Virus record (IMG/VR): IMGVR_UViG_2563366800_000008
Direction: 5' to 3' (one strand)
DNA: 31,111 nucleotides
Source of the DNA: a virus
Lineage: Duplodnaviria > Heunggongvirae > Uroviricota > Caudoviricetes
Shown here: positions 1 to 30,716 of the stretch, piece by piece
How the letters are laid out: every line of letters begins with the position of its first letter
How positions within the stretch are numbered: position 1 is the stretch's first letter
Program-made: the position numbers and the translations under genes
Notes under the pieces: generated by a model
The model's database searches: none
What the model saw: only the letters and a program-made list of their open reading frames with translations
Told to the model about the DNA's origin: nothing

Positions 1-1128
1 TTATGCCGCCAGCACGCGGTTGCGTCCATCATTTTTCGCCCGATACAAAGCATCATCAACGCGTTTAAACAGTTCATCGATGCTTTCATTTCCTTCGTGA
101 TGCGCCACACCAATGCTGACGGTAAAGCGTGGTAAGCCCGAAATACTCACTTTTGCCACGCTTACGCGGATAGTTTCAGCCAGCGAAAGCGCGGTATCCA
201 GTGGGGTTCTTGGTAGCAATAAGACAAACTCTTCGCCTCCCCAACGAAACACCAAATCGCCTTTGCGAGCGCAACTTTCGAGGGTGCGGGCGAGGGCGCA
301 TAACACCTCATCACCTTTAGAATGCCCATAGAGATCGTTAATGTGTTTAAAACGATCGGTGTCGATGAGCAACAAGCTGTAATCCTGAGCGATGGCGAGA
401 TGCTGCATTTGGCCTGGTTCCGTAATGTGATAAAACTGTCGCCGATTCAGTAATCCGGTCATCGCGTCATGGTGAGCAGCATGTTCCAGCTGCTCCTCCA
501 GCCGTTTTTGCTCAGTAATATCATGCACAATACATAACATGAGCTTGTCGCCATAAATTTCAATCGGTCCGGCATAGGTCTGCACATGACGAGTCGAACC
601 ATCCGCCAGTTTATGAACAAAATTCAAAGGTTTATGACCACCGGGTAAATGCGAGATTTCATGCATGATAGGCATGACGCGACGCCCGAGCATATTTATT
701 TCCCAGGTATGTTTCTGGCACATCGTTTCATGGTTATAACCATAGAAATTGAGCGCGGCGAGGTTAGCATCGACGATTTGTCCATCTCGTGACGGGTCAA
801 TCAACAACATTGGTGCAGAGTTAGTCAGAAAAAAGCGCGCATAAAAACCTTGTTTTTTGCGCTGATAATTTGCCGAGCGACTGGCTTTTAAACCCAGCGT
901 TGCCGGCGCTTCGATACCTTCGAAAATAATCACCGGTTCTGTTTCTGTCAGCTTTCGCAAAACAAGCCGACAGCTCAATGCTGTTTCCTCTTCTTTACGC
1001 TGAACAGTGAGGATTTCGATAATATCGTGTTGGTTTTGCAGATCGGAGAGGTATTTCGGCAGTTCTTTTTGTGAGGAGACGGAATAGGGTCCGGTTCGTA
1101 GCTGACTAAACGTGAGGTCTTGCATCAA
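1..1128 (-). CDS. dgcM: Host PAS-GGDEF diguanylate cyclase; 5' end interrupted by the prophage
   Basis: 375-aa ORF with GGEEF active-site motif (RWGGEEFVLLL) and PAS-like N-terminal region; stop codon at 1-3. Reading frame stays open upstream to a TAG at 1213-1215 and encodes SLDLLTSPVWIVSPFEEQLIYANSAAKLL, which matches my recollection of the DgcM/YdaM N-terminus. No in-frame start before that; first in-window ATG is at 1123-1125 (ORF track begins at a TTG). Confidence 0.8.
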   Translation of the reverse strand: MMQDLTFSQLRTGPYSVSSQKELPKYLSDLQNQHDIIEILTVQRKEEETALSCRLVLRKLTETEPVIIFEGIEAPATLGLKASRSANYQRKKQGFYARFFLTNSAPMLLIDPSRDGQIVDANLAALNFYGYNHETMCQKHTWEINMLGRRVMPIMHEISHLPGGHKPLNFVHKLADGSTRHVQTYAGPIEIYGDKLMLCIVHDITEQKRLEEQLEHAAHHDAMTGLLNRRQFYHITEPGQMQHLAIAQDYSLLLIDTDRFKHINDLYGHSKGDEVLCALARTLESCARKGDLVFRWGGEEFVLLLPRTPLDTALSLAETIRVSVAKVSISGLPRFTVSIGVAHHEGNESIDELFKRVDDALYRAKNDGRNRVLAA

Positions 1129-1248
1129 CAGTTTCGCCGCGCTATTGGCATAAATTAACTGTTCCTCAAAGGGCGAAACGATCCAGACAGGACTGGTGAG
1201 TAAGTCCAGTGACTAGTGACAGTGATGTATGGATCAAACAGAGAACCC

Positions 1249-1288
1249 GGGAATAACCGGGAATTCATGGGAATTAACGGGAGGAAGG
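1249..1288. repeat. Four tandem 10-bp units GGGAATAACC / GGGAATTCAT / GGGAATTAAC / GGGAGGAAGG near the prophage left end
   Basis: Directly visible head-to-tail repeat with 10-bp period, about 40 bp inside the inferred terminus. Position fits transposase end-binding sites (attL). Confidence 0.5.
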
Positions 1289-1506
1289 CTTGAGTTGTGA
1301 GGCTTCGCACAACGTTAAGCTACTCGACTTGTGGAAAATCTGGCATATCGTCAATTTTGGATCATTCGATAGCGAAGCCAGTTAAGTGTCACATAGATTT
1401 GGATCGTATAGCAGTTAATTTCAAAGCGTTTAACGGGATTTAAACTCAGCTTAAAATGCCCACAGGAGGTGCGAAGGTAAAGCCAGCCAATTGAGCACTT
1501 TTGCAA

Positions 1507-4514: not shown

Positions 4515-5453
4515 ATGACGCAAATTAACCATGATGTTGTGCGCAGTGCCATTCGTGAACTTATCGACAGCAAGACGATTTCCGGTGCAGCGCTGGCGCG
4601 TGAGACCGGTACATCAACCGCGACGGTTTCACAGTTCCTGAACGGGAAATACAAAGGTGACAATGACACCGTAGCTGCCAGCCTGAATACCTGGCTTGAA
4701 AGTCACAACGCCGCGAAAACCACGCTTCCGGTGGCCCCTGATTTCGTTGAGACACCGACCTCTCAGAAAATCCTCGCCACCCTGACGTGGGCGCAGCTGG
4801 CCGGGACGATTGTGCTGGTTTACGGCAATCCGGGCGTGGGTAAGACAAAGGCTATCCGGCAGTATGCCGCAGGCGGTAATAACGTCTGGCACATCACCGC
4901 CAGCAAATCCCGCAGCAATGAGCTGGAGACCCTGTATGAACTGGCCCTGAAAATGGGCATCAGCGATGCGCCATACCGCCGTGGTGCACTCTCTCGCCTG
5001 CTGCGCCAGCGTCTGCCGGACACGCGCGGCCTGATAGTGGTGGATGAAGCCGACTGGCTGAGTCTGGATGCGGTGGAAGAGCTGCGTATTCTCCAGGAGG
5101 AATGTGGCGTGGGGCTGGCACTGGTGGGTAACCACAAGGTCTATGACCGTCTTACCGGCGGCCAGCGCAGCGTGGATTTTGCCCGCCTGTTCTCCCGCGT
5201 GTCCAAGAAGTACGTCATCAATACCGTTTCCGCTGGTGACGTGGACAGCTTCTGCGATGCCTGGCAGGTCACCGGCGCTGACGAACGCAAGCTGCTGAAG
5301 GCTATCGCCCGACGTCCGGGGGCGCTGCGTTCTCTGTCGCACATCCTGCCGCTGGCCGGAATTTACGCTCAGGGCAAGGGTGAGACCATTGGCACGGCGC
5401 ACATCCAGTCCGCCATGCTGGAGCTGGGCCACAGCGGTATCGGAGAGGAGTGA
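4515..5453 (+). CDS. B: MuB-type AAA+ ATPase, transposition target DNA activator
   Basis: 312-aa ORF with Walker A motif GNPGVGKT and N-terminal HTH-like region; same length and position as Mu B. Confidence 0.9.
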   Translation: MTQINHDVVRSAIRELIDSKTISGAALARETGTSTATVSQFLNGKYKGDNDTVAASLNTWLESHNAAKTTLPVAPDFVETPTSQKILATLTWAQLAGTIVLVYGNPGVGKTKAIRQYAAGGNNVWHITASKSRSNELETLYELALKMGISDAPYRRGALSRLLRQRLPDTRGLIVVDEADWLSLDAVEELRILQEECGVGLALVGNHKVYDRLTGGQRSVDFARLFSRVSKKYVINTVSAGDVDSFCDAWQVTGADERKLLKAIARRPGALRSLSHILPLAGIYAQGKGETIGTAHIQSAMLELGHSGIGEE

Positions 5454-5457
5454 CATC

Positions 5458-5697
5458 ATGATCGCCGAACGTATTGCAGAGCACATCAGCATGGCAGAAG
5501 CGGCGCAGAACTGGCTGCGTGCGCGTGGCAGTCGCGTGACTGACGTTCGGGTGTTTATGCGTCGCCCGCTGCTGGAGATTGCCTGCCCGCCGGTTGAGCT
5601 GCTTAACAGCGCAGAGCGCATTGCTGAATCACACAACGGTGGCACCCGCTCCGTCTGGGTCGCCAGTCTGGAAGGTTGCCGGATTATCTGGAGGTAA
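5458..5697 (+). CDS. Hypothetical early-region protein
   Basis: 79-aa ORF from ATG 5458 with GAGGAG 9 nt upstream; sits where Mu has kil. No family recognised. Confidence 0.5.
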   Translation: MIAERIAEHISMAEAAQNWLRARGSRVTDVRVFMRRPLLEIACPPVELLNSAERIAESHNGGTRSVWVASLEGCRIIWR

Positions 5698-7817: not shown

Positions 7818-8322
7818 GTTAATCCATGTTGCCCGTCGCAATCTACAACTGGACGATGACACCTACCGCTCTGTACTGATGCGAGTGACGGGAAAGCAAA
7901 GCTGTCGTGACCTGAGAGTCGGCCAACTGGAGGATGTGCTGAAGGTACTGGAGGATAAGGGTTTCATTCGTACCCGTCCCCGTTCTCCGGCTCGCCGTCA
8001 TCGTGAGACAGATATCACCGCAAAGGTCCGCAGCATCTGGCGGCAGATGCATCTTGATGGGTTTATCCGTGATGGCAGCGATACCTCACTCGATTCGTTC
8101 GTCGCGAAGATGACTGTCAGAACCAACAAAGGTAAAGGTATCGCCAGCCTGGCATGGTGCCGTGGCGATAATCTTCTGATGGTGCTGGAAAGCCTCAAGC
8201 AATGGCACCTGAGAGAAATGACAGAGGCGCTGAGTCCGCGAGACCTGGCATTTCAGGATAATCGGGGTTATGACGCCATCAACAGCCTGTATTCCAGTAA
8301 AGTAAGAAAGGTGCGCACATGA
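7795..8322 (+). CDS. gemA: GemA-like protein (Mu gp16 family)
   Basis: N-terminus MSRASLIKLIHVARRNLQLDDDTYRSVLMRVTGKQSCRDL resembles Mu GemA. ATG at 7795; the ORF-track start at 7750 is a TTG. Confidence 0.75.
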   Translation: MSRASLIKLIHVARRNLQLDDDTYRSVLMRVTGKQSCRDLRVGQLEDVLKVLEDKGFIRTRPRSPARRHRETDITAKVRSIWRQMHLDGFIRDGSDTSLDSFVAKMTVRTNKGKGIASLAWCRGDNLLMVLESLKQWHLREMTEALSPRDLAFQDNRGYDAINSLYSSKVRKVRT

Positions 8323-8726
8323 GCGAAAAGCAGAATGACCTGTTTGGTGATATCCAGGATGACAGCATTCTGGAGCACCTGGACGATGACAGTTCGGCGG
8401 AAACTGTGCGTTTCCCTGCACTGCTGACAGAACTGAATACGCTGTTGCGTGGCGAACTGACAAAGCATGGTGTTGACCCACGAATCTCTCTGGAGCTGGT
8501 CTATGCGATTAGCTGTCAGATTGGTGGAATGCAGATTTATTTTCCACGCGGCCAGACTCTTGAGTCATTGATTCGTGATATGAAAATCTGGCGTGATTTC
8601 AATGGCAGAAACATCACAGAGTTGGTTGAGCGTTACCGTGTTACCTATAAAACGGTGTATAAAGCAATCCGGAGAATGCGAAAGTTAGAGCAAGGTAAGA
8701 GGCAGCTCTCATTTAATATGGAGTGA
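8319..8726 (+). CDS. mor: Mor/C-family transcriptional activator
   Basis: 135-aa ORF; DLFGD..DD.IL.HLD...RFPALL.EL..LLRGEL and C-terminal HTH TVYKAIRRMR resemble Mu Mor. Start overlaps the gemA stop (ATGA). Confidence 0.85.
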   Translation: MSEKQNDLFGDIQDDSILEHLDDDSSAETVRFPALLTELNTLLRGELTKHGVDPRISLELVYAISCQIGGMQIYFPRGQTLESLIRDMKIWRDFNGRNITELVERYRVTYKTVYKAIRRMRKLEQGKRQLSFNME

Positions 8727-8730
8727 TAAT

Positions 8731-9054
8731 ATGGTTGGTGTGATTGTTATTAACATAGTTTGTATTATATGTGTTTTTTGGGTTTTCTTTGATGCTACTT
8801 CTAACAACATAGGAAGTTATGTTGTTAGAGACGGTGTGCGAAAAGGATGTCGCAGAGGCATACACCCTGTGGTTTGGGCTGCGCTGAGTATATTTATACT
8901 TCCTTTTATTTGGTATCTGATCAACAGGAAATCTTTATTGATCGCTGCGGAAGAATATCCAGTAAAGACTGATAAAAGCGTAAGTTTTATTATTCTACTT
9001 TTGTTGGTATCAGGATGGTTGCTCTATCGCTACAAAGATTATTTATTCTATTAA
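8731..9054 (+). CDS. Small hydrophobic membrane protein (about 3 predicted TM segments), AT-rich moron-like gene
   Basis: 107-aa ORF with visibly lower GC than its flanks and three hydrophobic stretches; followed by an intrinsic terminator. Occupies the position of C in Mu but is not a Mor/C homologue. Confidence 0.55.
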   Translation: MVGVIVINIVCIICVFWVFFDATSNNIGSYVVRDGVRKGCRRGIHPVVWAALSIFILPFIWYLINRKSLLIAAEEYPVKTDKSVSFIILLLLVSGWLLYRYKDYLFY

Positions 9055-9070
9055 GTTATAGCCAATACAA

Positions 9071-9086
9071 TGAAGCCGGTTAATCC
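9071..9086 (+). promoter_or_regulatory. Conserved motif TGAAGCCGGTTAATCC upstream of the lysis operon; candidate late-promoter activator site
   Basis: Identical 16-mer recurs at 17045-17060 upstream of the head gene; both copies lie 76-80 nt before the first ATG of an operon. Confidence 0.45.
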
Positions 9087-9097
9087 GGCTTTTTTTT
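9073..9097 (+). terminator. Rho-independent terminator
   Basis: Perfect inverted repeat AAGCCGG-TTAAT-CCGGCTT followed by a run of T residues. Confidence 0.7.
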
Positions 9098-9150
9098 CGT
9101 CCGGCACATGATGGAAGGGAAATCTAACCCACTTCCAAAGGTGCCGTTTT

Positions 9151-9741
9151 ATGAACAACACCCCCGATTCTCCCGCATTTCGCAATGCTCTTGCTTTCGT
9201 GCTCAGCGCAGAACGCGGATATGTCAATGACCCCACTGACCGTGGCGGTGAAACTAACTTCGGTATATCAGATAAACGCGACGGTGTTGCCGATGGCATG
9301 ACCGACGTTAATGGCGATGGCAAGCCTGATACTCGTATTCGTGATTTAACGGTTGAACAGGCCGGACAGATTTACTTCCGTGACTACTGGTATCCGGCGT
9401 ATTGCCAGTTATGGCCGGATGATATCGCCCTGTTTGTCTTTGATTCTGCCGTCCAGCATGGCGTCAAAAAGGCTGTCCAGTTGCTTCAGGAAGCTGTGGG
9501 TTTCACTGGCAAAAGCGTTGACGGTATCGCCGGTAAAAACACCCGTGCAGCCGTTGAGCGTGCTGACCCTGACTGGCTGCTGAACCGTTTGTTTCTGCAA
9601 CGTTCCCGCTATTACGCCGACATCATCAAAGCAAACTCTTCGCAGGGCAAGTTCCTCAACGGCTGGTTTAACCGCCTTGACAACCTCGCTGACGCCTGTC
9701 GTGAGATTTCCGGTGTCCGCTATTCGGTAGCCCGGAGCTGA
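9151..9741 (+). CDS. Endolysin, GH108-type lysozyme with C-terminal peptidoglycan-binding domain
   Basis: 196-aa ORF; N-terminal LSAERGYVNDPTDRGGETNFGI and C-terminal region VDGIAGKNTRAAVE fit the GH108 plus PG_binding_3 architecture as I recall it. Confidence 0.8.
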   Translation: MNNTPDSPAFRNALAFVLSAERGYVNDPTDRGGETNFGISDKRDGVADGMTDVNGDGKPDTRIRDLTVEQAGQIYFRDYWYPAYCQLWPDDIALFVFDSAVQHGVKKAVQLLQEAVGFTGKSVDGIAGKNTRAAVERADPDWLLNRLFLQRSRYYADIIKANSSQGKFLNGWFNRLDNLADACREISGVRYSVARS

Positions 9742-9742
9742 T

Positions 9743-9961
9743 ATGGGCAAGGGATGGGACGCTTCGCTGAAACAGGGACGACGTGACCGGCTGAGGCAGG
9801 AAGTTCTTCACCGAATAGCAGGTGGCCCCGTCCCCGTTCCGACAAGTTATGCAGGTCATGACGGTACACACGCCAGTTACTACATGCGCGGCTGGTCATC
9901 CGTCGATATCAGAGACATCGTCTGGCAATGCCAGCGATACAAGGAAAAACACAATGTTTAA
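9743..9961 (+). CDS. Hypothetical lysis-cassette protein
   Basis: 72-aa ORF starting 2 nt after the endolysin stop; no TM segment or lipobox seen. Confidence 0.4.
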   Translation: MGKGWDASLKQGRRDRLRQEVLHRIAGGPVPVPTSYAGHDGTHASYYMRGWSSVDIRDIVWQCQRYKEKHNV

Positions 9962-10361
9962 ATCGTTTAGCTGCGACTGGTTAAGGCTGGCACTGGTACA
10001 GGTTTTGCGCTCCGGATGGAGCATTGTCATTCTCGTCGGCCTGTCGCTGTTCATCTGTAGTTTCTCAGGCCGCCAGGCATTTATGGTCTGGTGGCTGGCA
10101 CTCTCCGGCGTGGTTCTGATCGGATTCAGTATCTTTCTTGGCAATCTTCCGTACAGGCTTCTTAAACCTGAAATGCATATCAGCCGGCATGCCCGTTTCT
10201 GGGCGTGGGTCATCTGGGTTGTAGGCGGTTTTCTTCTCATTCTGAGCCAGCTATATGCCACCCCGTTATACCTGATTCTTCTTACACCAGTGGGTGCTGC
10301 AATCGGCGTTCTTTTCTGTATGTGGGTTGAACGTAAGGGGCTTCTTGCATGGATCCAGTAA
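9954..10361 (+). CDS. Integral membrane protein (about 4 TM segments), possible lysis or holin-associated protein
   Basis: ATG 9954 with AAGGA 8 nt upstream; strongly hydrophobic throughout. The ORF-track start at 9822 is an out-of-context extension overlapping the previous gene. Confidence 0.55.
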   Translation: MFKSFSCDWLRLALVQVLRSGWSIVILVGLSLFICSFSGRQAFMVWWLALSGVVLIGFSIFLGNLPYRLLKPEMHISRHARFWAWVIWVVGGFLLILSQLYATPLYLILLTPVGAAIGVLFCMWVERKGLLAWIQ

Positions 10362-10957
10362 CCATCTCTACCGTTGCCAGCGTTCTGATGAAGGCAGGAC
10401 CGTCGTTACTGCGTACCGTGGGCGGCTGGTTCGGTGGCGACACCGCCAGAACGGCAGATTCTGTGGCGGGGATCGTTGAGAACGTCAACAGCGTCATCAA
10501 CCCGCAGGACCAGCAGCGGGTGCTTGAGCAAAAACTGGCGGCGCTGCCGCCAGAACAGTTCGTCCAGCTCCAGTCCCTGAAGGTCCAGATTGAACAATTC
10601 CAGCTTGAGCGGGACAAAGCCGTACTGGCTGACCGTCAGGCTGCCCACCATGAACAGCAGGAAACCATCCGTAACGGGGACAACGCCACGGATGAATATG
10701 TCCGTCAGACCAGACCGCTGATGGCCCGGCTGTCGCTATACAGCAGCATTGCGTATGTGATGCTGATGTCTGTGGGTCAGCAGGCTGGCGCGGTATCCGG
10801 TGCTTTTGGTCATGCCTTCTCCATGCCATCACCGGACTGGGATATCGCACTCATGCTGGCGACACCGGCGCTTGGGTATCTTGGTTTTCGTACCCTTGAC
10901 GGGTTCGCCCGGTACAGCAAATCCAGCAAACACAAAACGATGGCGGCGGGTAGATGA
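10349..10957 (+). CDS. Putative holin (3-TM holin family-like)
   Basis: 202-aa ORF with an N-terminal hydrophobic segment, central coiled coil and C-terminal hydrophobic segments; sits in the lysis cassette. Family assignment is from memory. Confidence 0.5.
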   Translation: MDPVTISTVASVLMKAGPSLLRTVGGWFGGDTARTADSVAGIVENVNSVINPQDQQRVLEQKLAALPPEQFVQLQSLKVQIEQFQLERDKAVLADRQAAHHEQQETIRNGDNATDEYVRQTRPLMARLSLYSSIAYVMLMSVGQQAGAVSGAFGHAFSMPSPDWDIALMLATPALGYLGFRTLDGFARYSKSSKHKTMAAGR

Positions 10958-11160
10958 CGGATGAACTGGACAAGGCCAGCGGCCTTGAGATGGCAGACCG
11001 TGAACGGGCATTAAATGCTCAGTTAAACAGGGTTAAAGAATCTCCTGACACGCCAGACCACTGCAACGACTGTGGTGACGAAATTGACCCGAAACGACTG
11101 GCGGCCATGCCGGATGCCGTGACCTGCATTGACTGCCAGACACTCAGGGAGACGGCATAA
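10954..11160 (+). CDS. traR: TraR/DksA-family C4 zinc-finger protein
   Basis: 68-aa ORF with CNDCGDEI...CIDCQ, the four-cysteine spacing typical of TraR/DksA zinc fingers. Confidence 0.8.
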   Translation: MTDELDKASGLEMADRERALNAQLNRVKESPDTPDHCNDCGDEIDPKRLAAMPDAVTCIDCQTLRETA

Positions 11161-11466
11161 ATGGAATGGGAAACCGTAAGAAGTAACTGGGCTGTCATCT
11201 GGGCCGGACTGATGTCCGGTATCAATATTATCCACCTGCTGCTGGTGAAAACCTATGCCCGCCGGGAAGAGATGGAGAAAGTTAACAGCCGGATGAGTGC
11301 ACTTGAAAAGGCCATCGACGGGATGCCGTCACGGCAGGAACTCCACCAGTTGCAACTGGATATGAGCAACCTGCGCGGCGAAATACGGGAGTTCTCCGGA
11401 ATGCTCCGGCAGGCCACACGTATCAGCGATCTGTTGCTGGAAAACGAACTGAAGGAAAAAAATTAA
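11161..11466 (+). CDS. Hypothetical membrane-anchored coiled-coil protein
   Basis: 101-aa ORF; N-terminal hydrophobic helix then coiled coil. Conserved in this position in Mu-like phages as far as I recall. Confidence 0.55.
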   Translation: MEWETVRSNWAVIWAGLMSGINIIHLLLVKTYARREEMEKVNSRMSALEKAIDGMPSRQELHQLQLDMSNLRGEIREFSGMLRQATRISDLLLENELKEKN

Positions 11467-11472
11467 GAGGCT

Positions 11473-11766
11473 ATGAGCATGCAAGAAATCCTCAACAGCG
11501 ACCAGCGTCTGGTCATTCTGCGCTCACTGGTGGAGTGCGGAGACAGTGCAAACGAATCCATTCTACAGACCTGCCTCCAGACCTACGGCCACCGGGTTTC
11601 CCGTGACACCGTCCGCACCCTCCTTGCGTGGCTACGTGAACAGGGACTCGTCACCCTGTCAGATGTCTCCGGGTGTTACGTCGCCGGCATCACAGGACGC
11701 GGTGAAGATGTGGCCTTTGGGCTGGCGACGGTCCCCGGCGTCAAAAAACCACGTGCGCGGGAGTGA
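11473..11766 (+). CDS. Hypothetical winged-helix-like protein
   Basis: 97-aa ORF on the late strand; no confident family assignment. Confidence 0.5.
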   Translation: MSMQEILNSDQRLVILRSLVECGDSANESILQTCLQTYGHRVSRDTVRTLLAWLREQGLVTLSDVSGCYVAGITGRGEDVAFGLATVPGVKKPRARE

Positions 11767-11768
11767 CG

Positions 11769-12143
11769 ATGGAACGGGCCAGAATACTTCAAATGTTAAT
11801 GACCTGCCGCCAGCAGGCGGAACAGTTGCGCCGCCTGTCAGGTCTGGCGGAGCGTCGGGAGTCCGGTGAAATCGGCATGTCAGCGAATGCGCTTTTTCAG
11901 GCCGCTGTGATCATTGATTCCCTTATCAGTGCAAATGAAAAAGCACTGGAAGGCATTGCCCGGTTGGACCGCTCTGAAACCCAGCTTATAGGAGAGCGCG
12001 ATCAGGTTATCGCCGTACTGGACAGCATGTATGAGGCTGTAACCGGTGCGCCCCCTGAGTGGAGCAGCGCATTTGGTTTTACGGATGCGATTAACGATGT
12101 GACAGAGCGTATTTTTGAACTGGAGAACATCTGCCATGACTAA
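11769..12143 (+). CDS. Hypothetical protein
   Basis: ORF-track start 11763 is a GTG that overlaps the previous stop; ATG at 11769 has GGAG upstream. Confidence 0.5.
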   Translation: MERARILQMLMTCRQQAEQLRRLSGLAERRESGEIGMSANALFQAAVIIDSLISANEKALEGIARLDRSETQLIGERDQVIAVLDSMYEAVTGAPPEWSSAFGFTDAINDVTERIFELENICHD

Positions 12144-12414
12144 AGCCCTTAAGCCACTGAGCAGCAGCCAGCGCGACATCATCCGGAAAATGGCCGCCAT
12201 TCTCGTCTGTGCGGAAATTGAAGTCAGAGCCATTGCACCGCAGTTTGAAAAATCGACGGGTAAAAAATACAACTCCGAATCCGCTGATTCGTATCTGAAC
12301 ACATTCCTCAACAGCAACCCGGAATACAAACGCGTCTGGAAGTTGCTGCTGAAAGACAAATCCAGCGTTGAACGTGACTTCCTTGAACGTATGAGGAGGG
12401 AGAATGGCAAGTGA
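12136..12414 (+). CDS. Hypothetical protein
   Basis: ATG 12136 inside ORF 12115..12414, overlapping the previous stop by 8 nt. Confidence 0.45.
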   Translation: MTKALKPLSSSQRDIIRKMAAILVCAEIEVRAIAPQFEKSTGKKYNSESADSYLNTFLNSNPEYKRVWKLLLKDKSSVERDFLERMRRENGK

Positions 12415-12982
12415 ACGCCAGACGCGCGGACGACCCTCAAAGATTGATTTGCTCCCGGATGCGGTCCGGGAGCAACTTCATCAGATGCTGCGCGACAAAC
12501 GACATACCCAGGAAGAAATCCGCGAAGCGATTAACGAGCTGATCAACGAATATAACCTTCCGGAGGACATGCAAATCAGCCGTACCGGTCTGAACCGCTA
12601 CGCAAGCCGCATGGAAACGATGGGGTCAAAGATTCGCGCTTCACGCGAGATGGCTGAAATATGGGCATCAAAACTTGGCTCAGCGCCGACGTCTGACGTC
12701 GGAAAATTACTGCTGGAGTTTGTCAAAACACTGGCCTTTGAAACCTCAATGGAAATGGCTGACAGCGATAAAACTGTCGAACCAAAAGCGCTGGGCCAGC
12801 TTGCGCTTGTCGCCCAGCGACTGGAAGCCGCAGCGATGGCAAGCCACAAACGCGAGAAAGAAATCCAGCAGGAGTTTGCGAAAAAAGCCGCTGCGGCCGC
12901 AGAGACCATAACCCGTTCTGCTGGTCTGTCTGCTGAGACGGCGGCTGATATCAAACGTCAGATTCTGGGGATTGCAGAATGA
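12404..12982 (+). CDS. Terminase small-subunit-like protein (Mu gp27 family)
   Basis: 192-aa ORF directly before the large terminase; N-terminus RGRPSKIDLLPDAVREQL resembles Mu gp27 as recalled. Confidence 0.7.
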   Translation: MASERQTRGRPSKIDLLPDAVREQLHQMLRDKRHTQEEIREAINELINEYNLPEDMQISRTGLNRYASRMETMGSKIRASREMAEIWASKLGSAPTSDVGKLLLEFVKTLAFETSMEMADSDKTVEPKALGQLALVAQRLEAAAMASHKREKEIQQEFAKKAAAAAETITRSAGLSAETAADIKRQILGIAE

Positions 12983-16958: not shown

Positions 16959-17060
16959 CGTCATGACGGCACGTGAAAAAATCGTTAAACGCGCCACAGC
17001 GTTTTTAAACGTGTTTTAAACGCGGTTTCATGCCGCGTTTACAGTGAAGCCGGTTAATCC
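16959..17060 (+). promoter_or_regulatory. Head-operon upstream regulatory array: palindromes, 9-mer repeats and the shared 16-mer
   Basis: Palindrome CGTCATGACG (16959-16968), CACGTG (16970-16975), three direct TTAAACGYG copies (16985, 17005, 17016) and one inverted copy forming a 9-bp stem (17017-17041), then TGAAGCCGGTTAATCC (17045-17060), 61 nt before the protease/scaffold ATG. Confidence 0.5.
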
Positions 17061-17120
17061 ACCTGCATCCCCGTTCCCCCCCACACTGTCCGGAAGTAAA
17101 CAACGTGACCGGACAACACC

Positions 17121-30141: not shown

Positions 30142-30716
30142 ATGAATGGCTGGGCGCTTTATGGCAGGTCATGCCACGTGGCAAAGCGTGGTCACGCGAT
30201 GAGGATGGTGATTTAAACCGTTTTTTACGGGCGTTAGCCAGGCGTTTAAGTCAGACGGAATTTGATGCAGAAAACCTGCTACCGGAGATGCGGCCAGAAA
30301 CAACATTTATGCTGCTGGAAGAATGGGAGGAATACCTTGAACTGCCGGAGTGTGGGCAGTTAAGCGGTACTGTAGAAGACCGACGTCGTGCTGTCGTGGA
30401 GAAGTATCACCGCAAAGGTGGCCTTTCCCCGTGGCAGATTGAAGCTGTGGCTGCCGCGCTTGGATTTACTATCCGGGTTACTGTCATTCTGCCTCACCAC
30501 TGCATGCGTAGCTGCGTGTATCCCCTTTATCCAGCTCGTTATCGCTGGACGTTACAGATTGATGTGATCGGTATCAACGGCGGACGTTTTACCTGTATCG
30601 ATAACGTCATGACACCGCTTCTGAGCGAACGTGCAAGAGAACTGGAGTGTGTGCTGACGAAATACCGTCTCGGCGGCACAGCATACGAATATTTTTATTC
30701 TTCAGGAGATAACTGA
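30126..30716 (+). CDS. Tail protein, Mu gp48 family (gpI-like)
   Basis: 196-aa ORF directly before the tail fibre gene. Confidence 0.7.

Follow-up and report, generated by a model that had tools for sequence, protein, structure and literature searches.

A Mu-like prophage of Escherichia coli with a predicted cytoplasmic endolysin, a candidate GTA-type holin and no recognisable spanin at the head of its lysis/late operon

The DNA analysed here (referred to as the window) is a stretch of 31,111 nt, IMG/VR record IMGVR_UViG_2563366800_000008 (Caudoviricetes), which represents a Mu-like transposable prophage of Escherichia coli. This report concerns the segment 9073-11466 and its immediate surroundings, in which the lysis genes of the prophage are situated and in which no spanin gene could be recognised. 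The features of the region are as follows.

8319-8726, plus strand: Mor-family transcription activator (Pfam Mor, E 1.8e-30; 'Mor transcription activator family protein' according to the Prokaryotic Genome Annotation Pipeline, PGAP)
8731-9054, plus strand: 107-aa protein with three transmembrane (TM) segments, as judged from three hydrophobic segments (phrog_36430, no assigned function)
9073-9100, plus strand: G+C-rich hairpin AAGCCGGTTAATCCGGCTT followed by a T run, with a terminator-like site at 9072-9092
9151-9741, plus strand: endolysin of 196 aa with GH108 and PG_binding_3 domains (Pfam PF05838 and PF09374; phrog_315 'endolysin')
9743-9961, plus strand: gp18-like protein of 72 aa, soluble and basic (tblastn to Mu gp18; phrog_2121)
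9954-10361, plus strand: 4-TM inner-membrane protein of 135 aa (hydropathy; phrog_12596)
10349-10957, plus strand: membrane protein of 202 aa, of the gene transfer agent (GTA) holin type (phrog_1544, E 2.3e-63)
10954-11160, plus strand: TraR/DksA-family C4 zinc-finger protein of 68 aa (PF01258, 47.1 bits)
11161-11466, plus strand: DUF2730 protein, of the family of the Mu gp25 'releasin' (PF10805, 105.3 bits, E 2.1e-30)
11473-11766, plus strand: homologue of Mu gp26, VpaChn25_0724 family, winged-helix-like (NF050184, 121.6 bits)

The five open reading frames (ORFs) from 9151 to 11160 had been described in an earlier reading of this DNA, made from its letters alone (the sequence-only reading), as a lysis cassette consisting of a GH108-type endolysin, a 72-aa soluble protein, a 4-TM membrane protein, a holin-like membrane protein and a TraR-family protein. 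Their coordinates and strand were confirmed by the ORF list and by the PGAP calls, and the assignments proved correct in Pfam, PHROG and hydropathy analyses. The five genes are real, but the cassette does not end at traR as had been proposed: the operon extends past that gene, and the DUF2730 gene situated directly 3′ of it, at 11161-11466, had been missed. Between 9741 and 11473 the spacing of the genes ranges from -13 to +6 nt, and since they overlap or abut in this way, they are considered to constitute one translationally coupled block.

The endolysin encoded at 9151-9741 was readily assigned. Its Glyco_hydro_108 domain scores 77.9 bits (E 8.9e-22; Pfam cut-off 21.2) and its PG_binding_3 domain 58.5 bits (E 7.9e-16), and a match to NF040573 'holin-associated N-acetylmuramidase' was obtained with an E value of 6.5e-19, below the cut-off of that model. 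The GH108 motif of the E-G-G-Y type reads A-E-R-G-Y at residues 20-24, and its Glu is, we presume from the family, the catalytic residue. No signal, signal-anchor-release (SAR) or hydrophobic N-terminal segment was found in the protein, and the highest 19-residue hydropathy over its whole length is 0.81. An endolysin without a hydrophobic N-terminus would be cytoplasmic and would require a lesion in the membrane to reach the wall; the enzyme is predicted, on these features, to be a cytoplasmic, holin-dependent GH108 muramidase.

The best-characterized relative of this operon is that of phage Mu, which has a SAR endolysin, the spanins gp23 and gp23.1, the DUF2730 'releasin' gp25 and no holin (Chamblee et al. 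2022, PMC9239132). The gene order in Mu is lys, gp23/gp23.1, gp24, gp25, gp26, gp27; the order in the window is lys, gp18-like, 4-TM, 202-aa, gp24-like, gp25-like, gp26-like, two extra small genes and gp27-like. In BLASTP comparisons the TraR-like protein aligned end to end with Mu gp24 (27% identity, one single-residue gap, all four Cys matched, pairwise E 4e-5), the DUF2730 protein matched Mu gp25 with an E value of 7e-12, and the product of 11473-11766 was 59% identical to Mu gp26 (E 1e-39). By tblastn, the 72-aa protein has 67% identity to Mu gp18 (E18) and 69% to the SfMu and Yersinia Mu-like homologues; phrog_2121 is also the family of the Mu protein. The two phages thus have in common an activator, an endolysin, a variable slot, a small C4 zinc-finger protein, a DUF2730 protein, the gp26 homologue, the small and large terminases, gp18 and an identical hairpin after mor.

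The differences are confined to a few positions. Mu encodes a SAR endolysin (gp22) and the window a cytoplasmic GH108 enzyme; the slot that holds Rz/Rz1 in Mu holds the gp18-like, 4-TM and GTA-type holin-like 202-aa genes in the window; and the gp18-like and multi-TM genes, which follow the endolysin gene here, belong to a separate middle operon in Mu. No counterpart of Mu gp20 was found in the window, nor one of Mu gene C among the window ORFs tested. The backbone of the operon is therefore that of Mu, with differences in the type of endolysin and in the slot between the endolysin and gp24. The earlier description of the cassette as 'non-Mu' consequently holds for those two positions, but not for the 72-aa protein, which is Mu gp18, or for the TraR-like, DUF2730 and following genes, which are gp24, gp25 and gp26.

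The stretch 8700-12450 is 100% identical in three complete E. coli chromosomes, whose PGAP annotation gives the same gene calls over that stretch as the ORF list, and ~96% identical in two more. A second prophage lineage, ~72% identical over the same stretch, occurs in ~39 further E. coli records, and matches were found in 43 of 5426 complete E. coli genomes. On its 5′ side the operon is preceded by genes for a transposase, a B-like ATPase, Gam, GemA and the one Mor-family activator; on its 3′ side follow a DUF3486 small terminase, the large terminase, the portal and Mu-type head and tail genes. At the right end of the prophage, beyond the window and read here from strain ECONIH4, nothing is encoded but tail fibres and a Gin-type invertase, apart from an IS66 insertion.

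The full enterobacterial module, with the 4-TM gene, is present in Klebsiella phage Kp4866-3 and in strain PSS-15, which represents the second E. coli lineage. A shorter form is shared by Vibrio and Shewanella Mu-like myophages (1.028.O, martha 12B12, ZX4290 and MuM16-2). In Vibrio phages 1.028.O and ZX4290 and Shewanella phage MuM16-2 it comprises an endolysin, a gp18-like protein (~87 aa), a ~196-aa homologue of the 202-aa protein, TraR, DUF2730, a gp26-like protein and the small terminase. The endolysin of these relatives is of the GH108 type, except in ZX4290, where it is DUF5675. They differ from the window in the absence of the 4-TM gene (from the modules of 1.028.O, ZX4290 and MuM16-2) and of the 107-aa gene, and their protein identities to it are 26-63%. 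Identities to the window in Kp4866-3, PSS-15 and Vibrio 1.028.O, respectively, are 85, 69 and 40% for the 202-aa protein, 79, 79 and 26% for the gp18-like protein and 53, 44 and 46% for the TraR-like protein; those of the 4-TM protein are 49 and 29%, with no homologue in 1.028.O. The Vibrio 1.028.O group has been tabulated, in Table S1 of Chamblee et al., among DUF2730 phages with GH108 (+ PG_binding_3) endolysins, and martha 12B12 is tabulated there as well (PMC9239132).

Spanins are lacking in ~13% of phages of Gram-negative hosts, and BPP-1 and RcapMu appear in Table 10, which lists such phages (PMC6139136). Spanin genes were sought by six-frame scans in which every ATG, GTG and TTG start was considered. 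One scan looked for a lipoprotein signal, with a permissive and a strict filter, and a second for proteins with a TM segment at the N-terminus and an otherwise soluble chain. As a positive control, the same scans recovered from Mu both the outer-membrane subunit (o-spanin) gp23.1 (MQKKKLQPPLLVTIAALVLCLPLLLTGC...) and the inner-membrane subunit (i-spanin) gp23. With the strict lipoprotein scan there were no matches in the window, none in the ECONIH4 right end of the prophage and none in the whole genome of Kp4866-3, and the complete genome of Vibrio 1.028.O gave only two antisense ORFs with TTG starts. The permissive scan yielded only out-of-frame or antisense fragments, with none on the sense strand of the operon. 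No ORF of the i-spanin type was found on the sense strand of the window; the sole window protein with an N-terminal TM segment and a coiled coil is DUF2730, in which K/R residues directly follow the TM segment. A u-spanin of the T1 gp11 type, with a lipoprotein signal and a C-terminal TM domain, was likewise not found, there being no lipobox ORF in the scans to provide one. The ORF at 30418-30567 (LTTAC/VAAC) was rejected as a chance lipobox match: it lies out of frame within a baseplate gene, has a GTG/TTG start, has a hydrophobic 'mature' part and fails the strict filter.

It is apparent that the absence of recognisable spanins, noted previously for the cassette, is upheld and extends to the whole prophage and to its relatives, the complete genome of Vibrio 1.028.O being, like the window, without a lipoprotein spanin. 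There is no credible lipoprotein in the run of cassette genes, and no conventional i-/o-spanin pair was found anywhere in the prophage. As far as can be judged from these scans, no two-component or unimolecular spanin is encoded in the cassette or in the prophage as a whole. Such loopholes as remain may lie in non-standard start codons, an outer-membrane anchor other than a lipoprotein, or supply in trans. That a spanin is in fact present but was missed in one of these ways or through an unusual lipobox, or is supplied by another prophage, is considered very improbable. Nested spanin genes have been overlooked before, as in LambdaSo (bioRxiv 10.1101/2024.01.23.576932); 196 o-spanins had been unannotated before the survey of Kongari (PMC6139136); and the ECONIH4 prophage sits within a lambdoid prophage. 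Nevertheless, the scans that recover gp23.1 and gp23 from Mu are empty on the sense strand of the operon, the complete genomes of Kp4866-3 and Vibrio 1.028.O are equally empty, and, for a transposable phage, dependence on a second prophage would not be portable.

It is also conceivable, but in our opinion extremely improbable, that the prophage is a decaying, lysis-defective remnant from which spanins have simply been lost. It is known only as a prophage of E. coli, and the ECONIH4 copy carries an IS66 element in the tail-fibre region. Against this, all of the ORFs in the operon are intact, and the gene set persists, with protein identities of 29-87%, in two E. coli lineages, in Kp4866-3 and in the plaque-derived Vibrio phages. 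No relative has spanins in the slot.

If the endolysin depends on a holin, the protein of 202 aa is the best candidate in the operon. It is a full-length member of phrog_1544. An exhaustive HMMER search for its relatives gave 132 representatives of 170-215 aa; 29 of the 62 that were aligned match PF11351 (GTA_holin_3TM) at E<=0.01, the best with an E value of 8.4e-9. The alignment of the family reveals two conserved motifs, 'Q.TIR...D.YVR.TRP' ahead of hydrophobic helix 2 and 'P.L.YMG.RT.D' where helix 3 ends, and weakly hydrophobic stretches are situated in the window protein at ~1-20, 124-146 and 164-180. Its AlphaFold2 model is all helical, with a predicted local distance difference test (pLDDT) score of 91. 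A fold search of the PDB with this model gave nothing below E 2, and the best match in BFVD (E 6.3e-8) is named 'Holin of 3TMs, for gene-transfer release' (PF11351).

Genomic context points in the same direction. Genes of phrog_1544 are situated directly, or one to two genes, after an endolysin gene in Vibrio, Shewanella, Klebsiella and Janthinobacterium phages, in LP.1 and in BPP-1. Bbp1 of BPP-1 belongs to phrog_1544 (1.5e-44), and the order there is bbp2 (GH108) and then bbp1; in Vibrio LP.1 a GH108 'Bbp2' precedes the phrog_1544 homologue; and in Janthinobacterium Donnerlittchen a holin III and an LD-endopeptidase precede it. In RcapMu, gp29, encoded directly after the lysozyme, scores above the PF11351 cut-off. 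The lysis locus of RcGTA consists of the endolysin/holin pair rcc00555-rcc00556 (PMC5026251). These pairs (rcc00555-rcc00556, RcapMu gp28-gp29 and BPP-1 bbp2-bbp1) resemble the window in having, after the endolysin, a helical and weakly hydrophobic member of the PF11351/phrog_1544 group with a length of 170-210 aa, and the BPP-1 endolysin is, like that of the window, a GH108 enzyme. The window differs from the GTA and BPP-1 pairs in that two extra genes separate the protein from the endolysin and in its Pfam score, given below; RcapMu has another lysozyme family, and XhlA where the window has TraR and DUF2730. Of the proteins encoded near the signal-less endolysin in the Vibrio and Shewanella modules, only the phrog_1544 homologue and DUF2730 are membrane proteins, so that the former, as the only multi-TM holin candidate there, is also the most economical one.

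An alternative is that the 4-TM protein (or the 107-aa 3-TM protein) is the real holin, and that the 202-aa protein is a regulator or has a function other than lysis. Both are far more hydrophobic than the 202-aa protein. The 107-aa protein, in addition, resembles class I holins in size and in its predicted N-out/C-in layout with three TM segments and is encoded just before the endolysin, and a Bbp1 homologue in phage PB1 is encoded outside the lysis cluster. The 4-TM gene, however, is missing from Vibrio and Shewanella relatives whose endolysin is the same and likewise lacks a signal, and Mu gp19, which occupies the corresponding position, is, like gp20, a dispensable middle gene without holin activity (PMC9239132). 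The hairpin and T run lie downstream of the 107-aa gene, which has a G+C content of 35%, as compared to ~53% in the neighbouring genes, and is absent from PSS-15; its product was rejected on these grounds as a core lysis protein or holin. In our view this alternative is quite improbable.

The gp18-like protein has a net charge of +5 and no hydrophobic segment. Its AlphaFold2 model (pLDDT 85) contains helices at 3-26, 43-53 and 56-70 and has no fold match in the PDB, the best E value being 2.1. To our knowledge, the phiKT disruptin is the only alternative to spanins that has been worked out. That protein, phiKT gp28, is a cationic peptide that stands in for spanins (bioRxiv 10.1101/515445). There is a likeness to the window in that phiKT provides a spanin-less coliphage setting and the 72-aa protein is small and basic. 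The window protein differs from gp28, however, in being a hydrophilic three-helix bundle of low hydrophobic moment whose homologue in Mu is encoded beside spanins. For its best 18-mer the hydrophobic moment is 0.35 and the mean hydrophobicity -0.57, whereas the moments of reference membrane-active peptides range from 0.51 to 0.89. A disruptin-type role was rejected because of this low amphipathicity, the hydrophilic three-helix fold and the coexistence of the Mu homologue with spanins. A role as an Rmf/CrpP-like ribosome factor was also rejected, no Pfam match being obtained at E<=10 and no PDB match for the confident AlphaFold2 model.

Some further observations were made on this family. Of the 284 positions in the phrog_2121 profile, 3-74 align with the gp18-like protein and 89-275 with the 202-aa protein, as if the two were one protein in some phage. 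No such fusion was found among the 132 family representatives, and three of the longest lack a gp18 domain. In Vibrio phages the two corresponding genes (gp18-like and 202-aa homologue) are read in different frames and share 16-19 nt. Precomputed annotation places the Pfam accession PF26867 on all of the gp18-like homologues.

The 135-aa protein has four hydrophobic segments and homologues only in the Enterobacterales; Kp4866-3 was the only source of a homologue in the phage collection. It is the fastest-evolving and least widespread gene product of the operon, and it is possibly a holin regulator or accessory, as judged from its sequence and position. Homology to Mu gp19 was rejected (BLASTP E 2.9; hhalign probability 0.4%), and the two are positional analogues only. 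In PSS-15, the first TM segment of the 4-TM protein (5244-5654 of the examined locus) ends in the lipobox-like sequence LFLASC at residue 32. This site, which is probably part of a plain TM helix, was the sole match to the strict lipoprotein filter in the examined PSS-15 locus.

The protein encoded at 10954-11160 matches zf-dskA_traR (PF01258) with 47.1 bits (cut-off 24.9; E 2.4e-12), falls just below the cut-off of TIGR02419 for the TraR family (58.5 as compared to 59.7 bits) and matches the DksA structure 1tjl with an E value of 1.5e-7. It contains the motif CxxC-x17-CxxC at Cys37/40/58/61, which we take to be the positions occupied by the same residues in F TraR, and begins with M-T-D-E-L-D, with Asp3 and Asp6. 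It shares with F-plasmid TraR and the phage homologues lambda Orf73, P2 Orf82, VHML Orf8 and VP882 Orf61 a length of ~70 aa, the spacing of the Cys residues and the acidic residues at 3 and 6. Those phage homologues bind RNA polymerase and increase the yield of phage, and rRNA and ribosomal-protein promoters are inhibited by them; the D3A/D6A substitution abolishes the effect of Orf73 (PMC9239242). By analogy, the 68-aa protein would be expected to bind in the RNA polymerase secondary channel and to alter initiation at rRNA promoters. The suggestion in the sequence-only reading that it reprogrammes host transcription is reasonable, but such a function has already been established for phage homologues (PMC9239242).

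The same reading had presented traR as an oddity embedded in a lysis cassette, and this was not borne out. A zinc-finger gene is found in the same position, directly before DUF2730, in every relative examined, including Mu. Mu gp24 (Mu 11524-11718) also has the motif CxxC-x17-CxxC and may be a divergent protein of the TraR/DksA type. The window differs from the known phage homologues in that its traR-like gene lies in a lysis/packaging operon under presumed Mor control, while theirs are among the early genes.

In the DUF2730 protein, the match to PF10805 covers residues 5-98, and a TM segment at 11-29 is followed by a coiled coil. In all 34 of the transposable phages examined by Chamblee et al., a DUF2730 gene is no more than five genes away from the endolysin gene, and in many such phages DUF2730 is paired with a cytoplasmic endolysin (PMC9239132). 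The DUF2730 gene of the window fits this rule of <=5 genes, being the fifth after the endolysin gene, and its partner is an endolysin without a SAR domain, unlike that of the Mu releasin.

The operon is preceded by a conserved element. The hairpin, which is perfect, the T run and the ACGTCC that follows recur unchanged after mor in Mu and are also present in Kp4866-3 (alignment with Mu 9164-9254), and the primer 'Mu Pm nt9163' contains the hairpin sequence (PMC9239132). In Mu, the end of the early transcript and the Mor-dependent middle promoter Pm are situated in this region. The first gene after the element is gp18 in Mu and the endolysin in the window, where the element would mark the start of the lysis/late operon and may act as its promoter. 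Among the window ORFs tested, only that at 8319-8726 belongs to the Mor/C family. A partial copy of the element, AAGCCGGTTAATCC (9073-9091), recurs at 17047-17065, in the intergenic region that precedes the head protease gene, with a C-rich run after it; 16 of its 19 bases are retained (0.01 expected by chance). The two copies may represent a shared activator site of two late promoters. A two-tier cascade is proposed, in which the single activator would drive the lysis and late operons directly. The published Mor site consists of 5-bp repeats with a G/C-rich 6-bp spacer (PMC4390567). The hairpin at 9073-9091 is unlike it and was rejected as a Mor-binding site; it is termed here a conserved post-mor element only.

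Taken together, these results argue, with a probability of about 0.6, that 9073-11466 is the head of a Mu-like lysis/late operon that encodes a cytoplasmic endolysin, a holin and accessory proteins, with traR as a backbone gene and without a spanin. After induction, the single Mor-family activator would turn on transcription just downstream of the hairpin at 9073-9091. The GH108 muramidase, having no export signal, would build up in the cytoplasm while the 202-aa protein collects in the inner membrane, where at a programmed time it would make the lesion that gives the muramidase access to the wall. The gp18-like and 4-TM proteins would be translationally coupled accessories, possibly regulators of holin timing, and the TraR-like protein would divert transcription from ribosome synthesis in the productive phase. 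In comparison with Mu, a SAR endolysin and Rz/Rz1 would have been swapped for a cytoplasmic endolysin and a holin. Since no spanin appears to be encoded, rupture of the outer membrane would be passive once the wall is gone, or would be brought about by a factor not recognisable from sequence.

Several results weigh against parts of this reading. With respect to the holin, the 202-aa protein lies below the PF11351 cut-off (15.2 as compared to 24.8 bits, E 0.031), and its hydrophobic segments are weak, with only 124-142 above 1.3 on the Kyte-Doolittle scale. The holin role of phrog_1544 is inferred from family membership and from position near endolysins of at least three enzyme types. In PB1-like Pseudomonas phages a Bbp1 homologue is encoded among replication genes, away from the endolysin, which makes the label 'holin' insecure for the wider family. 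With respect to regulation, Mor control of the promoter is likewise an inference, the published Mor site having no obvious match to the hairpin. The late or middle expression that the reading implies for the TraR-like protein is unlike the early expression of lambda Orf73, and the Pfam TraR model does not detect Mu gp24. Finally, BPP-1 and Donnerlittchen have another small membrane protein upstream of the endolysin that is a potential holin, which would leave the phrog_1544 protein in the 'spanin position'. As a separate observation, Bbp1 homologues are present in ~300 PB1-like records; that of PB1 (37737-38342) lies beside a MazG-like pyrophosphatase, ~2 kb from the endolysin and on the opposite strand.

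There is another explanation, in which the phrog_1544 protein, alone or in a complex with the gp18-like, 4-TM or DUF2730 protein, is an outer-membrane disruptor that replaces spanins. Consistent with this, these genes occupy in the window the slot of Mu Rz/Rz1; the order in BPP-1 and Donnerlittchen, where phrog_1544 comes last, resembles holin, endolysin, spanin, with the same adjacency to the endolysin in LP.1; and carriers of phrog_1544/PF11351 recur among spanin-less phages (BPP-1, RcapMu and the clade of the window). The predicted topology of the 202-aa protein is difficult to reconcile with such a role. Its basic residues are situated at R122, before helix 2, and in a K/R-rich tail after helix 3, and the positive-inside rule consequently predicts that the coiled coil and C-terminus are cytoplasmic and that the periplasmic loop is only ~15 residues long, too short for a spanin-like reach to the outer membrane. 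The putative partners are subject to similar objections. The DUF2730 family is predicted to be N-out/C-in (PMC9239132). Mu has gp18 beside its spanins, the Mu lysis constructs of Chamblee et al. did not contain genes 18-21 (PMC9239132), and the helices of the gp18-like protein are hydrophilic, with the low moment given above. The 4-TM gene is absent from the spanin-less Vibrio and Shewanella relatives. This explanation is regarded as unlikely. A broader version, namely that phrog_1544/GTA_holin_3TM proteins mark a spanin-independent route in which the envelope lesions they make (alone or with the gp18-like, 4-TM or DUF2730 proteins) also fell the outer membrane, is a speculation that we consider decidedly doubtful. 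If true, it would explain the absence of spanins in BPP-1, RcapMu, RcGTA and the window clade.

The reading preferred here, in which a cytoplasmic endolysin and a holin act without a spanin, does not overturn current views. Tabulated Mu-like lysis modules, spanin-less lysis and the function of TraR in phages are already known themes. The prophage is rather a convenient test case: among transposable phages Mu is the best studied, and a relative of it without spanins, in the host that is most tractable, makes a pair of Mu and a Mu-like phage available. The shared backbone permits single slots to be swapped with Mu, by which the need for an outer-membrane factor, the role of DUF2730 beside a cytoplasmic endolysin and the identity of the holin could be addressed. 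The second of these was named as an important next step by Chamblee et al. (PMC9239132).

Genes adjacent to the operon were also considered. The AT-rich 107-aa gene is present in Kp4866-3, and in the Vibrio and Shewanella relatives a secreted 150-aa protein is found in its place. The gene resembles a moron, perhaps one for superinfection exclusion or a membrane function, as judged from its composition and distribution. Upstream of the module in ZX4290 there is, near mor, a lipoprotein of 190 aa (707-1279 of the examined locus) with a textbook signal, MKRLLSFGLIAMLAGC, encoded between gemA and the late activator; it is longer than the usual o-spanin and differently placed, and the window has no such gene. 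The interval 11763-12414 of the window, which separates the gp26 homologue from the small terminase, encodes two proteins, one acidic (126 aa, charge -9; phrog_16295) and one basic (99 aa, charge +8; phrog_8988). Neither has a counterpart in Mu or in the Vibrio relatives, and the basic one is present in Kp4866-3.

The ECONIH4 copy of the prophage interrupts the tail assembly gene of a lambdoid prophage, and its IS66 element lies in the tail-fibre region. The left flank of the window (1-1300) differs from that in ECONIH4, which indicates that the insertion site in the chromosome differs between the two, as would be expected of a transposable phage.

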